64,000 bases of DNA from NCBI GenBank assembly GCA_964588495.1, contig CAZPPS010000002.1, positions 1,108-65,107 on the forward strand, given 5' to 3'. Positions within the stretch are counted from its first letter, which is position 1; each line of letters begins with the position of its first letter. Both the position numbers and the translations under genes were made by a program. The notes under the pieces are model-generated. The model searched no databases. It was not told the origin of the DNA and saw nothing but the letters and a program-made list of their open reading frames with translations. This DNA comes from an uncultured bacterium (GTDB lineage: Bacteria > Chlamydiota > Chlamydiia > Chlamydiales > JAAKFR01). Positions 53,472-56,902 of this stretch are shown in pieces.

Positions 53472-54221
53472 TCAGAAATTTACAATGAACTTCTTCACTA
53501 AATTGATCGATTGGTAGAAAGAATGTTCAAGCATGGGGGCAAAATATTTGACACTCAGACCAAGGGATGAGAGGCCAACGATGAGCTGCAGCGGAAATCC
53601 GATCCAGAAAATCGGCATAAAACGGGAGAGGAGTGCAAAGATCAAGATCAAAGAAAAGAGCATCGTCAAAGGGATGAAGGCAAAACCCAAGGCATTTTGA
53701 AATAAAAGATTACTGATTTCGATACAGCCAAAAGCGGTTGTTTGGGTGAGCGGGTATTTTAGGGGGAAGCTATGGTAGCTTTCGTAAAGAAGGCGTAAAA
53801 GGGGATGGTGTAGATCCAAAATTAAAAACAGAGTCAAGGTAAATAGGGCAAAAAAACGACCAAGGAGGGGTGAAGAGGCATTAGAATTGGGGTCTAAAAT
53901 TTCGGTGGCAGACAAGCCCATGAGCACTCCCAAAAACTGGCCAGCAAAAGCTGCCGATTCAAACAGGAGGGCAAAAATCCATCCGATGACAAATCCCAAC
54001 ATTCCCTCTTTAAGAAGATCCAGAGCAAAGTAAAGGGGTTTTTCGAAGCTATAGGAGAAGGTGCCCATAAGAAAAGGAGTGAGGCTTAGGCTGCAGGCAA
54101 GGCTCAAAGATAAACGGACCAGAAAAGAAACCCCTTTTTCTGAAAAAAGAGGTGAGAAGACAAACAAGCCCGATAACCTGGAAAAAATAAGCAAAAAAAA
54201 TGGCCAAATATTACTGGACAT
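53472..54221 (-). CDS. sctT: Type III secretion export apparatus protein SctT (FliR/YscT family)
   Basis: 249 aa and multi-TM. The N-terminus FFLLIFSRLSGLFVFSPLFS is typical of FliR/SctT. It overlaps the sctS stop. Confidence 0.85.
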   Translation of the reverse strand: MSSNIWPFFLLIFSRLSGLFVFSPLFSEKGVSFLVRLSLSLACSLSLTPFLMGTFSYSFEKPLYFALDLLKEGMLGFVIGWIFALLFESAAFAGQFLGVLMGLSATEILDPNSNASSPLLGRFFALFTLTLFLILDLHHPLLRLLYESYHSFPLKYPLTQTTAFGCIEISNLLFQNALGFAFIPLTMLFSLILIFALLSRFMPIFWIGFPLQLIVGLSSLGLSVKYFAPMLEHSFYQSINLVKKFIVNF

Positions 54222-54501
54222 AGTGTGTTAAAGAGGTGACTTTATCCCATTGGTGAAGAAGGAGATTGTTTGTAAATTTTGTCAGCATCTTAAGCATCCA
54301 AGGGAAAAAAATCGCAAGCGTGACGGCGACAACGACCATTTTTGGAACAAATGTCAACGTCATCTCTTGAATGCGTGTAGCTGCTTGTACAAGTGATATT
54401 AAAATGCCTACAATGAGTGCAATCAGCAAAAAAGGGGCGGCAATTTCAAGCGCCACAAGCAACATTTGTCTGACAATTTGGGTAATTTGTTCGGAGGTCA
54501 T
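54211..54501 (-). CDS. sctS: Type III secretion export apparatus protein SctS (FliQ/YscS family)
   Basis: A 96-aa two-TM hairpin beginning MTSEQITQIVRQMLLVALEIAAPFLL...LVQAATRIQEMTLTFVPK. The longer ORF-track start would run through a terminator hairpin. Confidence 0.85.
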   Translation of the reverse strand: MTSEQITQIVRQMLLVALEIAAPFLLIALIVGILISLVQAATRIQEMTLTFVPKMVVVAVTLAIFFPWMLKMLTKFTNNLLLHQWDKVTSLTHYVQ

Positions 54502-54540
54502 TTGAAACGGGATGGTATAAAAAAAAGTGTTTTGTCCCCA

Positions 54541-54574
54541 GAAAAAAATAGGGAGTGAGACGAATCTCACTCCC
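54541..54574 (-). terminator. Rho-independent terminator between the low-complexity protein gene and sctS
   Basis: On the minus strand: gggagtgaga-ttcg-tctcactccc followed by tattttttt. Confidence 0.8.
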
Positions 54575-54590
54575 TCAATAGAGCTAGCGC

Positions 54591-55439
54591 TTAGCTGTTG
54601 TTAGGTTTGACAGGTTGCTTTGGTGGTGTCGGTTGTTGTTTGTAAGGTTTCTTTGCATCAGTATCAGCAGCAGGTTTTACAGTGTCAGATTTCATTGTAG
54701 CATCAGCTTTAGGAGCAGTGTGTTGTCTTGGTGTGCTTGGAGCAGTTGGGTTTGTAGAAGGCTCAGATGGGTTTGGTCTTACGTTTGTATCAACTCTTGT
54801 TGAAGTTGATGTGTCAGCTTTAGGAGCAACAGGAGCAGCTGGAGCATTTGGATTTACAGCAGATGAGTCAGTTCTAGCTGGAGCTGAACTGTCAAATCTT
54901 TGTGGCCCTTGCTGAGCTGAACTTGGTTGCCCGGCATCACGGTCAGCACGGTATTGGTCAACGCGATCACGGAAGTCGCTACGGAATTGATCCGCACGTT
55001 CACCCCATGTACGCTGGTCGCCACGGTTTTGGTCGTTCCAAGAACGTTGATCACGCTGGTCGCCACGGTTTTGATCCGAAGCACGTTGATCACGCTCGTT
55101 ACGGAATTGATCCGCACGTTCGCCCCATGTGCGTTGATCACGCTGCTCTCCACGGAATTCTCCACGGAATTGATCAGCACGATCGCCCCAATTGCGGTCG
55201 CCACGCTGATAGAATTGTCCAGCTTGTGGTCCATACGGAGTTCCATACTGACCTTGCTGTCCGTATTGCTGGTATCCATACTGACCAGCTTGTGGTCCTT
55301 GGAAACCTTGACCTTGCATCATTGGACCTTGTTGTGGTCCTTGCTGAGGAGCAGCTTGTGAACCTGTTGTCCACTGGCATGCACCATAACCAGCAGTAGC
55401 TGTAGCAGATAAGATGAGAACTGCTAAAAGTTTTTTCAT
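54591..55439 (-). CDS. Secreted low-complexity protein (Q/G/Y-rich, then R/D/Q repeats, then P/T/A/S-rich tail)
   Basis: The signal peptide is MKKLLAVLILSATATAGYGAC. There are three copies of (T/N)WG(D/E)RADQFR. An AT-rich upstream region and a downstream terminator are present. All six frames are open because of the low complexity. Confidence 0.65.
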   Translation of the reverse strand: MKKLLAVLILSATATAGYGACQWTTGSQAAPQQGPQQGPMMQGQGFQGPQAGQYGYQQYGQQGQYGTPYGPQAGQFYQRGDRNWGDRADQFRGEFRGEQRDQRTWGERADQFRNERDQRASDQNRGDQRDQRSWNDQNRGDQRTWGERADQFRSDFRDRVDQYRADRDAGQPSSAQQGPQRFDSSAPARTDSSAVNPNAPAAPVAPKADTSTSTRVDTNVRPNPSEPSTNPTAPSTPRQHTAPKADATMKSDTVKPAADTDAKKPYKQQPTPPKQPVKPNNS

Positions 55440-55702
55440 ATATCCTCCGATAATGTTTTTAGAAAGGAGATTGCTGTATTTAGTTACATCATAATGAATA
55501 TAGTAATTATTTTGAAATAATAATTATAACTATGTGCAAATTAGGCACAAAAATTCTAATAAATTTACAAAGTATTTACAGTTTTCTTTCGTAAGTGGGT
55601 TTTGTTGATAAAAGCTCCGAGGGAAATACTGCAGGCAGCTTTCTGCAATAAGAATCCATAAAAGGAGGCCCAAAGTTAGAAAAAATTGGTGTTTTATTTC
55701 TC

Positions 55703-55773
55703 TCGGGCACGGAAACGGTTCGAGCAAGGTCTCGGACACGGTCACGCAGGGAAAAACAGACGGTCACGCACGG
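55703..55773. repeat. Solo right arm of the CACGGT element family (ends CGGTCACGCACGG)
   Basis: cgggcacggaaacggttcgagcaaggtctcggacacggtcacgcagggaaaaacagacggtcacgcacgg lies directly downstream of the sctR stop. Confidence 0.65.
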
Positions 55774-55776
55774 AAT

Positions 55777-56412
55777 CTAGGAAGTGTGGAAGCCTTGAAC
55801 GACCTGGGAGACAACAAGGCGCCAGCCATCCACGACAACAAAGAGAAGGATTTTGAAAGGAAATGAGATCATCACAGGCGGTAGCATCACCATTCCCATG
55901 GACATGAGTAAAGATGTGACAACCATATCGATCACAAGGAATGGTAAAAAAAGGAGAAATCCCAAAATAAAAGCTGTGCGGAGCTCAGAGAGTACAAAAG
56001 CTGGAATGACGCAATACCAGGGGATATCTGAAATTTCTGCTGTATCGCTTAAAGTCACTTTCCCCATTTCAAGGAATAGCTGCAGATCTTTTTCCCGAAT
56101 ATTATAGACCATAAACTGCCGCAAAGGGGGCCATGATTTTTCGACGAGCTGAATCGGTTTTTTTTCTTCTCCCTCCAGATAGGGAACGATGGCCGTTTTG
56201 TGGATTTCAGTGATCACAGGATGCATGATGTAGCCTGTTAAGATTAAGGAAAGTCCAATAATAATTTGGGTTGAGGGGACAGAAGTGCTCAAGGCTTGCT
56301 TGAGGAAGGTCAAAACAATGGAAATACGTGTGAAAGAGGTCATCAAGATAAAGACAAAGGGGATGAGGGCAATAATAACAGCAAGACCTACTACTGTTAG
56401 ATTATCCAGCAT
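55777..56412 (-). CDS. sctR: Type III secretion export apparatus protein SctR (FliP/YscR family)
   Basis: 211 aa with MTSFTRISIVLTFLKQAL, IPAFVLSELRTAFILGFLLFLPFLVIDMVV and MLPPVMISFPFKILLFV, all hallmarks of FliP/SctR. Confidence 0.9.
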   Translation of the reverse strand: MLDNLTVVGLAVIIALIPFVFILMTSFTRISIVLTFLKQALSTSVPSTQIIIGLSLILTGYIMHPVITEIHKTAIVPYLEGEEKKPIQLVEKSWPPLRQFMVYNIREKDLQLFLEMGKVTLSDTAEISDIPWYCVIPAFVLSELRTAFILGFLLFLPFLVIDMVVTSLLMSMGMVMLPPVMISFPFKILLFVVVDGWRLVVSQVVQGFHTS

Positions 56413-56413
56413 C

Positions 56414-56902
56414 TTAAGGGGAATCCGTCACATTATTTACGCACTTCATCGACTCCCCATTTGGCTTTTTAATCTTCTCTGAAAATGCCGCAAGAGAGGC
56501 GCTGCTTTTGCCTAGCTGCTGTTGCATGAGCATCTCTTGCATCTTTGTGGTATCTGTAAATTCTGTAATCAGCTGAATGCCTGCTGCCGACTCTGAGATG
56601 ACAACCCCTTTTCCCAAAACATCGATCAGATAAAGGGCAGCTTTTGGGTTTAAAGGGCGTTTTTCCAAAATCTTGATCCCGTTAGACCGATTGAGCGAAT
56701 GCATGCGCGAGCGCATGAGTTTCTTTAGAAGCCAAACAGTTAAGAAAATGAGGATAATCACAAAGCCAAGGGTGAGAAGCATGTTGGCAAACTCTCCCCA
56801 ATAGTTATAACTTTTTGACTCTCCCGCTGTGATTTCGTTTATTGTTTCGTCTGCAAAAGCACTTGTGAAAAAAAACAAAAATAAAGCTAAACATTGTTTC
56901 AT
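56414..56902 (-). CDS. FliO-like single-pass membrane protein upstream of sctR
   Basis: The order is a signal peptide, then the TM helix LLTLGFVIILIFLTVWLLKKL, then GIKILEKRPLNPKAALYLIDVLGKGVVISESAAGIQLI. This fits the FliO pattern (TM + ...kvlesr.Lgpk.slvlvev.gr.lllGvt...i.ll). Its stop lies 1 nt from the sctR start. Confidence 0.5.
   Translation of the reverse strand: MKQCLALFLFFFTSAFADETINEITAGESKSYNYWGEFANMLLTLGFVIILIFLTVWLLKKLMRSRMHSLNRSNGIKILEKRPLNPKAALYLIDVLGKGVVISESAAGIQLITEFTDTTKMQEMLMQQQLGKSSASLAAFSEKIKKPNGESMKCVNNVTDSP

Follow-up and report, generated by a model that had tools for sequence, protein, structure and literature searches.

A putatively flagellar-type fliOPQR export-gate module divided by a highly expressed secreted-protein gene in uncultured Chlamydiales

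The window analysed here is a stretch of 64,000 nucleotides (nt) of contig CAZPPS010000002.1 (assembly GCA_964588495.1), from an uncultured bacterium of the Chlamydiales lineage JAAKFR01, and it carries on its minus strand a small group of genes for a T3SS (type III secretion system) export gate. In the direction of transcription the order is fabI, a palindrome of about 364 bp, a fliO-like gene, fliP, a partial repeat arm, an AT-rich spacer, an open reading frame (ORF) here named X282, a hairpin with a U-tract, fliQ, fliR and a ybjN-like gene (Table 1). fliP starts 1 nt past the fliO stop codon, the last 8 nt of fliQ are shared with the start of fliR, and fliP and fliQ are 1.3 kb apart. The surroundings are housekeeping genes, with fabI upstream and the ybjN-like, RNase T and mqnA-like genes downstream. 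An earlier note on this DNA, which took the genes for an interrupted injectisome gate, had described nearly the same layout. Every coordinate holds, with the elements at or very near the positions it gave, including fabI and the palindrome upstream (331 bp in that account) and an AT-rich promoter-like stretch, now marked by its GC content and a sigma-70-like site. Its central observation also stands: a gene expressed on its own, equipped with a promoter-like site and followed by a strong intrinsic terminator, divides the gate genes. The ORF at 56414–56902, which it had left unnamed, is FliO-like (PF04347). Our best explanation, which as a whole we consider reasonably probable, takes the locus to be a flagellar-type module of four type III export-gate genes, fliO-fliP-fliQ-fliR, inherited within environmental chlamydiae.

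Table 1. Features of the export-gate locus, in the direction of transcription, with scores of the models that separate flagellar from injectisome proteins; the last row gives csrA in related loci.
Feature	Position	Strand	Remarks
fabI	57331-58281	-	upstream of the module
Palindromic copy of dispersed intergenic repeat family, ~364 bp	56975-57338		between fabI and fliO; inverted repeats I1-I3, I5, I6
fliO-like ORF	56414-56908	-	likely start ATG 56902 (MKQCLALF...); one membrane helix; PF04347 1.7e-10, 41.3 vs 22; TIGR03500 51.8 (cut-off 55.25), no injectisome score
fliP, 211 aa	55777-56412	-	PF00813 1.9e-67; TIGR01103 fliP 222.8 (cut-off 217.45) vs TIGR01102 yscR/SctR 160.6 (cut-off 208.6)
Partial ("solo") repeat arm, GC-rich	~55691-55775		directly after fliP stop codon; D3, D13, I4, I13; blastn against window
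AT-rich spacer	55440-55690		GC ~0.21-0.29 (0.21 at 55425-55574)
Sigma-70-like promoter of X282	55516-55488	-	TTCAAA-17-TATGAT; promoter scan; inside AT-rich spacer
X282, 849-bp ORF, 282 aa	54591-55439	-	no Pfam or NCBIfam family
Intrinsic-terminator-like hairpin	54575-54540	-	11-bp stem, 6 G-C pairs, 4-nt loop, then AUUUUUUU (U7)
fliQ, 95 aa + stop	54214-54501	-	starts MTSEQITQ as in relatives; PF01313 3.8e-27; TIGR01402 93.3 (cut-off 88.9) vs SctS TIGR01403 66.7 (cut-off 76.5)
fliR, 249 aa	53472-54221	-	PF01311 2.1e-44; TIGR01400 158.4 (cut-off 168.6) vs SctT TIGR01401 63 (cut-off 163)
ybjN-like gene	52958-53467	-	PF10722 2.1e-10; downstream of fliR
csrA of related loci			L081 7833-8069; L114 9761-10000; L116 8883-9077; L117 8869-9105; also L085, L086, L088, L097

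Family models placed the gate proteins with flagellar rather than injectisome homologues. FliP and FliQ passed the cut-offs of the flagellar equivalog models, the flagellar model was by far the best for FliR, and the models for SctR, SctS and SctT were missed by 10–100 bits (Table 1). Four bona fide flagellar FliPs ranked the models in the same way, scoring 270–298 on TIGR01103. The model NF009438 ("EscR/YscR/HrcR") was dropped, since true flagellar FliPs also pass its cut-off and it cannot tell the two systems apart, and the "sctR" of Waddlia merely bears the COG name FliP, a label that does not discriminate. Matches to solved structures in the PDB were at ~1e-50 for FliP and 1e-31 for SpaP. 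A profile search of genome contigs with a FliP alignment returned, among the matches listed, identities of 45–54% to flagellar FliPs (Clostridia, Geobacter, Bacillus and others), with L001 as the one chlamydial locus and otherwise flagellar FliPs of other phyla.

A profile of 15 members of the family was also searched exhaustively against 1.84 billion representatives, with the best 150 matches listed. Two matches stood about 50 bits above all others, an unnamed protein of 286 amino acids (aa) and SCA64034.1, the FliP of Chlamydiales bacterium SCGC AG-110-P3; the latter is the closest named outgroup, 49% identical to the FliP of the window and sharing with it the motifs IPWYC.IP.FVLSELR and DGWRL. 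Of the other 148 of these best 150, all but two matched only from position 24 onwards, a pattern like that of proteins with an N-terminal leader. No large named Chlamydia cluster of the kind expected of CdsR was present among the 18 of the best 150 that were checked, and the 16 beyond the top two were unnamed or named FliP, all in small clusters. Three marine single-cell chlamydial genomes, AG-110-P3 among them, carry flagellar genes that were placed apart from the chlamydial SctRST (PMC5604735), and the likeness to the AG-110-P3 protein supports a putative chlamydial flagellar lineage for the FliP described here. The periplasmic loop of this FliP is shortened; the relatives P0121 and P0122 carry extensions of about 58 aa.

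A FliO-family gene stands directly upstream of fliP here, and likewise ahead of fliP in those relatives for which gene tables were obtained. FliO was downgraded as a diagnostic marker, since a 2025 study reports it from some T3SS that are not flagellar, and also from a chlamydial operon whose function is unknown (PMC12248157). Neither the window nor some 20 related loci contained sctJ, sctL or another injectisome gene, and no other T3SS or flagellar gene (flhA, flhB, fliF, rod, hook, filament) was found within the 64-kb window. The earlier note had also pointed out that sctJ and sctL are missing; they are indeed absent upstream, which is what is expected if the gate genes are of flagellar type. 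A direct statement on fliPQR in cultured environmental chlamydiae was not found in the literature and supplements. As the non-flagellar T3SS is part of the chlamydial core genome (PMC8242063), a canonical sctRST would be expected elsewhere in this genome.

Judged from these models and searches, the gate very probably belongs to the flagellar lineage and not to an injectisome. The opposite view, taken by the earlier note, sees in these genes the sctR-sctS-sctT (cdsRST) gate of the chlamydial T3SS and in X282 a foreign gene that arrived by horizontal transfer and broke up the gate recently. The three proteins do fall in the shared FliP/SctR, FliQ/SctS and FliR/SctT superfamilies, and FliP, at 211 aa and devoid of a signal peptide, resembles SctR. 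However, the SctR, SctS and SctT equivalogs were widely missed, those of the flagellar proteins were passed or nearly so, a FliO-like gene stands ahead of fliP, and both the closest named outgroup, from a flagellar-gene study, and the lack of a large named Chlamydia cluster among the matches checked speak for the flagellar side. The second half of this view, the recent arrival of a foreign gene, depends on X282 and on its counterparts in related genomes.

X282 consists of a Sec signal peptide (MKKLLAVLILSATATA), a disordered segment rich in Q, G, Y and P, a long helix rich in R, D and Q (about residues 76–168), and a disordered tail rich in P, A, S and T. An AlphaFold2 single-sequence model was mostly of low confidence except for the one long helix, residues 76–168, where the predicted local distance difference test score (pLDDT) reached 89. 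A homologue search gave no match at E ≤ 0.001, because of the low complexity of the protein. The GC content at third codon positions (GC3) was 0.28 compared with 0.44–0.49 in the neighbours, with a strong preference for CGT, GCT, CCA and ACA.

Contigs from seven sequencing runs of at least five studies (X13, X14, X19, X20, X15, X21, and X22) matched the region at 95–100% identity, and only inside 54608–55389, within X282. Three of the runs (X13, X14, X20) were compared over 24001–64000 (40 kb) and the other four (X19, X15, X21, X22) only over 52900–58300 (5.4 kb); elsewhere in these stretches there was one piece of 179 nt at 37035–37213, together with matches shorter than 40 nt. X20 is a labelled wastewater metatranscriptome, and the other runs carry four coded organism names with no library description, four of them being guessed to be RNA and one being of unknown kind; contig depth is a crude measure of abundance, but the runs agree with one another. 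None of the RNA runs gave a contig for fliO, fliP, fliQ or fliR. X282 is very highly expressed, its transcript being by far the commonest in the region. A search for fliQR in RNA yielded only one run of unknown kind, with even, DNA-like coverage. A C>T difference at 54906, inside X282, occurred in the RNA runs X13 and X19 and in X12, and the contigs of X1, a sludge metagenome run, break at 54903/54908, in an internally repetitive part of X282; this suggests strain variation or repeat-induced assembly breaks.

All close homologues of the locus came from uncultured Chlamydiales, and synteny was kept among them in the order fabI ... fliO-fliP-fliQ-fliR-(csrA)-ybjN-RNase T-mqnA-like, with the ybjN-like gene at the same place in L001, L082, L085, L086, L088, L114, L116, and L117. 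In 11 close relatives (L001, L081, L084, L085, L088, L090, L091, L096, L097, L116, and L117), fliP and fliQ abut or overlap; they are also contiguous in the more distant L095, giving at least 12 loci, and in six fragments, L108–L113, that begin inside fliP. The junction is split by the same kind of cassette in the window and in four relatives, L114, L115, L082, and L086, and the arrangement is clade-specific and not universal among the Chlamydiae compared. The earlier note had named a recurrence of the arrangement in related genomes as a refutation of its reading, and this applies in part. The insert is 1.9 kb in L114 (two genes), 4.1 kb in L082 and 3.1 kb in L086, whereas of the gene inserted in L115 the contig includes only the first 48 codons.

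The inserted genes begin with MKKLLA(V/L)LIL..., followed by low-complexity sequence rich in Q, G, Y, S and P, and in L114, L082 and L086 the last cassette gene also has a BON domain. A regular-expression search of about 35 loci and the 64-kb window for the signal-peptide motif MKK(L/I)(L/I/F)A(V/L/I)(L/S)(I/V)L found it only at the fliP|fliQ junction of the five loci. The L115 fragment and X282 have a GYGAC motif in common. In the window, L114, L115 and L082, the -35/-10 hexamers and leader ahead of the first cassette gene can be aligned with one another, and the A/T-rich leader (TTAAAATTTTAAAA) with the AGG of the ribosome-binding site aligns in L114, L115 and L086. A hairpin with a U-run stands directly before fliQ in all four loci in which the distal end is visible (the window, L082, L086, and L114).

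A neighbour-joining tree of FabI, FliO and FliP gathered the five split loci in one group (53% bootstrap) with the contiguous L097 as its sister (77%), and the simplest history would be a single old insertion, after which cassette genes were gained and lost. The L082 insert also holds a DUF72 gene and an oppositely oriented DUF892 gene (7190–7936; 8012–8521) among its low-complexity genes, and this cassette has acquired unrelated passengers. Different genes, for predicted membrane proteins of 221, 451 and 489 aa, directly follow fliP in the more distant relatives L087 (1186–2698), L093 (8604–10509) and L094 (7362–9237), with no fliQ before the contig end; in L087, inverted repeats of about 200 bp flank the inserted gene. 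Insertions seem to have occurred repeatedly at the fliP|fliQ junction.

These comparisons bear on the supposed foreign origin of X282. Its deviant GC3 and the lack of a database homologue would agree with a recent import, but the same kind of gene, with its signal peptide, promoter and hairpin, sits at the same junction in four related genomes, among which synonymous sites are saturated. With its abundant RNA and conserved position, X282 has an odd codon use that is best read as a signature of high expression and not of recent import. The view that a foreign gene recently disrupted an injectisome gate is already largely refuted, and we give it very little credence.

Selection on the gate genes was consistent among the relatives. 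Non-synonymous divergence (pN) was 0.12–0.20 for FliP and FliQ (0.16–0.20 for FliQ) and 0.26–0.40 for FliR, against saturated synonymous divergence (pS) of 0.63–0.90, and the pN/pS pattern was alike within split genomes and within unsplit ones, with no excess in the split lineages. FliP, FliQ and FliR are under strong purifying selection. Because there is no such excess and the couplings between neighbouring genes are intact, the split is an old, tolerated rearrangement, neither a fresh disruption nor a step of decay. One could still regard fliOPQR as a decaying flagellar relic in which an interruption is without consequence, since further flagellar or T3SS genes are absent from the window, the signal peptide of FliP and part of its periplasmic loop have been lost, and the locus here lacks the csrA that most relatives have. 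Such a relic is, however, highly improbable: no chlamydial locus examined has a broken ORF among the four, as far as the DNA retrieved extends over them, non-synonymous divergence is low against saturated synonymous sites in split and unsplit genomes, and the start/stop coupling of fliO-fliP and fliQ-fliR has been kept.

The csrA gene, where present, lies between fliR and the ybjN-like gene and overlaps the start of ybjN by about 10 nt (coordinates in Table 1); it was found neither at the corresponding place in the window (53467–53472) nor anywhere in the 64 kb. The YbjN family presumably has a secretion-chaperone-like fold, and the pairing of CsrA with a YbjN-family protein beside a type III gate resembles the FliW-CsrA and CesT-CsrA partner switches.

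An assembly chimera in the metagenome bin would also produce a split gate, and both the uncultured state of the organism and a repeat family that breaks short-read contigs (loose ends at 57091–57299) would lend themselves to it. Yet Logan contigs of X1, which may be the data set behind the assembly of the window, span 53715–54903 and 54908–57193, covering both junctions: they cross from fliR through fliQ and the hairpin to the 3′ end of X282, and from the 5′ end of X282 through the spacer to fliP and fliO. As four related genomes from other studies share the same architecture, an assembly artefact is unlikely, and its probability appears close to negligible.

The hairpin region begins 15 nt after the X282 stop codon and folds at -25.8 kcal/mol (z -2.7). 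The earlier note had called it a rho-independent terminator and, indeed, a GC-rich stem-loop followed by U7 downstream of a stop codon is a strong one by sequence. By its account the genes beyond would need a promoter within about 40 nt or else read-through, and neither a promoter scan nor reading of the sequence gave a sigma-70-type match or an acceptable -35/-10 pair between the U-run and the fliQ ATG. This interval is 36–40 nt in the window and L114. L082 and L086 have the U-run right against the fliQ ATG, which makes a promoter at that place impossible, and their GGAGG, 9–10 nt upstream, is part of the hairpin's 3′ arm; in these two loci the hairpin may mask the predicted ribosome-binding site of fliQ.

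The sequence of events that would account for this arrangement starts with the insertion of a cassette exactly between fliP and fliQ in the common ancestor of this genome, L114, L115, L082 and L086. The cassette would have comprised Sec-exported low-complexity proteins rich in Q, G and Y, a strong sigma-70-type promoter and a terminal GC-rich hairpin with a U-tract. In the present genome it would have been reduced to X282 alone, the transcription of which would be very high and would mostly end at 54540–54575. A small fraction of polymerases reading through the hairpin would transcribe fliQ-fliR, and fliO-fliP would be transcribed from upstream. The hairpin may then act as an intra-operon attenuator, stepping expression down from an abundant secreted protein to low-copy gate subunits. 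The gate would still assemble because its stoichiometry does not need co-transcription.

Instead of depending on read-through, fliQ-fliR could be an independent transcription unit with a weak or non-canonical promoter in the T-rich 40 nt or in the 3′ end of X282, the terminator insulating it fully. The strength of the hairpin is in keeping with this, as are the 36–40 nt before fliQ in the window and L114 and a promoter-like site matching 9 of 12 positions inside X282 (54688–54660). But no acceptable -35/-10 pair was seen in the 40 nt, a transcript from 54688 must still pass the hairpin, and L082 and L086 leave no room between the U-run and the fliQ ATG. A separate promoter is therefore a possibility to be kept in mind, though an unlikely one.

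Several points weigh against the reading of the locus as an inherited flagellar-type module served by read-through. FliR and FliO fall slightly under the cut-offs of the flagellar equivalogs, FliP lacks the usual flagellar N-terminal signal peptide and starts at the first membrane helix, and FliO, no longer a strictly flagellar marker, is supportive and not decisive. The gate is assigned from model scores and sequence searches. The monophyly of the five split loci is weakly supported, with a bootstrap of only 53%. The homology of X282 to the cassette genes of the relatives rests on signal peptide, composition, position and flanking signals, and neither its tail nor the helical region in its middle has a counterpart in the other genomes. 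Finally, a transcript across the hairpin-fliQ junction was not seen in the RNA contigs, and read-through is the most likely source of fliQR mRNA as we infer it, not as observed.

The repeat arm after fliP, which the earlier note had called solitary, is present but is a partial copy of a dispersed family of GC-rich palindromic intergenic repeats, with at least five sites in the window (45–150, 44986–45120, 48031–48229, 55691–55775, and 56975–57338) and the motifs CCGTGCGTGACCG and GAGAAATAAAAC. The 16 nt at 55760–55775 are a perfect reverse complement of 56990–57005, such that inverted 16-mers bracket fliO-fliP. In X1, depth was about 30 at the palindrome (57063–57243) against 6.5–8.5 in the flanks, and short-read contigs break there. 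Rfam gave only sub-threshold miRNA-hairpin matches on the palindrome, and no tRNAs were found near the locus. The repeat family was absent from all related loci, and the arm was ruled out as the cause of the insertion because the four relatives that share the insertion lack it.

The tail of the fliLMNOPQR operon of Salmonella and Escherichia coli, which encodes the FliP5Q4R1 complex (PDB 6F2D, 6R69), has the same four families in the same order and with the same fliO-fliP and fliQ-fliR coupling. In contrast, the present module stands by itself amid housekeeping genes, flhA, flhB, rod and hook genes being absent nearby, its FliP is without a signal peptide, and an unrelated, highly expressed gene with a terminator stands between fliP and fliQ. 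In Chlamydia trachomatis, CT559–CT564 are ordered cdsJ-(CT560)-cdsL-cdsR-cdsS-cdsT; the superfamilies and the R-S-T order are alike, and here a FliO-like gene stands upstream instead of cdsL. Two of the three marine single-cell genomes have at least 20 flagellar genes and AG-110-P3 has five (PMC5604735), compared with only fliOPQR seen locally here, and the FliP of AG-110-P3 has 298 aa with an N-terminal extension.

Intra-operon terminators or attenuators that grade expression are classical, as in the E. coli operons rplKAJL-rpoBC and rpsU-dnaG-rpoD. The likeness lies in a strong promoter and an abundant product upstream, a hairpin with a U-tract, and low-abundance products downstream; the difference is that read-through here is a predicted process and that the upstream gene is, as far as known, functionally unrelated to those that follow. 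In Campylobacterota such as Helicobacter pylori, fliP, fliQ and fliR are unlinked, which shows that the gate assembles without co-transcription and that a split is tolerable, although the genes are scattered over the chromosome there, whereas here fliP and fliQ are only 1.3 kb apart and separated by a conserved inserted cassette and hairpin. Gene order is likewise markedly divergent in the Campylobacterota (PMC12248157). Since the gate genes, though contiguous in most bacteria, are not so in all, the split found here is not mechanistically shocking. What is new is modest: an isolated gate module of apparently flagellar lineage in sludge and biofilm chlamydiae, and a clade-specific, long-lived insertion between fliP and fliQ of a cassette for highly expressed low-complexity secreted proteins, with a conserved hairpin abutting fliQ.

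Other genes of the window were noted in passing. Three tandem DUF720 (PF05302) paralogues lie on the minus strand (48933–49415, 49444–50031, and 50054–50680), just downstream of the mqnA-like and PNP_UDP_1 genes. Three adjacent proteins of 540–700 aa with an N-terminal F-box are encoded on the minus strand at 29365–31467, 31542–33608 and 33686–35308, and are followed by several ORFs without a Pfam match; F-boxes are among the eukaryote-like domains expanded in amoeba-associated chlamydiae. A phosphoketolase (XFP) gene at 158–2566 and a type III polyketide (chalcone/stilbene) synthase-like gene at 11247–12281 were also present, neither of which, to our knowledge, is expected in a chlamydial genome.

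The corrected annotation, with an export gate of probable flagellar lineage in place of a broken injectisome, implies that the locus says nothing about the loss of virulence secretion. It would offer a natural example of a FliPQR gate that tolerates the separation of fliP from fliQR over long evolutionary time, and a testable case in which a terminator would lower expression, like a step-down valve, from a very abundant gene to membrane subunits of low copy number. X282 and its relatives appear to be abundant, secreted, prion-like low-complexity proteins of unknown role and, being found in transcriptomes under four organism names, may provide a convenient marker and a target for localisation. 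The finding also bears on the role of flagellar export genes in chlamydiae without a known flagellum. Cryptic FlhA, FliI and FliF homologues are known in chlamydiae and, as a speculation to which we attach only a small likelihood, apparently non-flagellated environmental chlamydiae might keep fliOPQR to form with these homologues a second export apparatus, neither flagellum nor injectisome, in one clade of which fliQR would be wired through a leaky terminator to an X282-type promoter. If so, assembly of the gate would be timed with the burst of production of an abundant secreted low-complexity protein.

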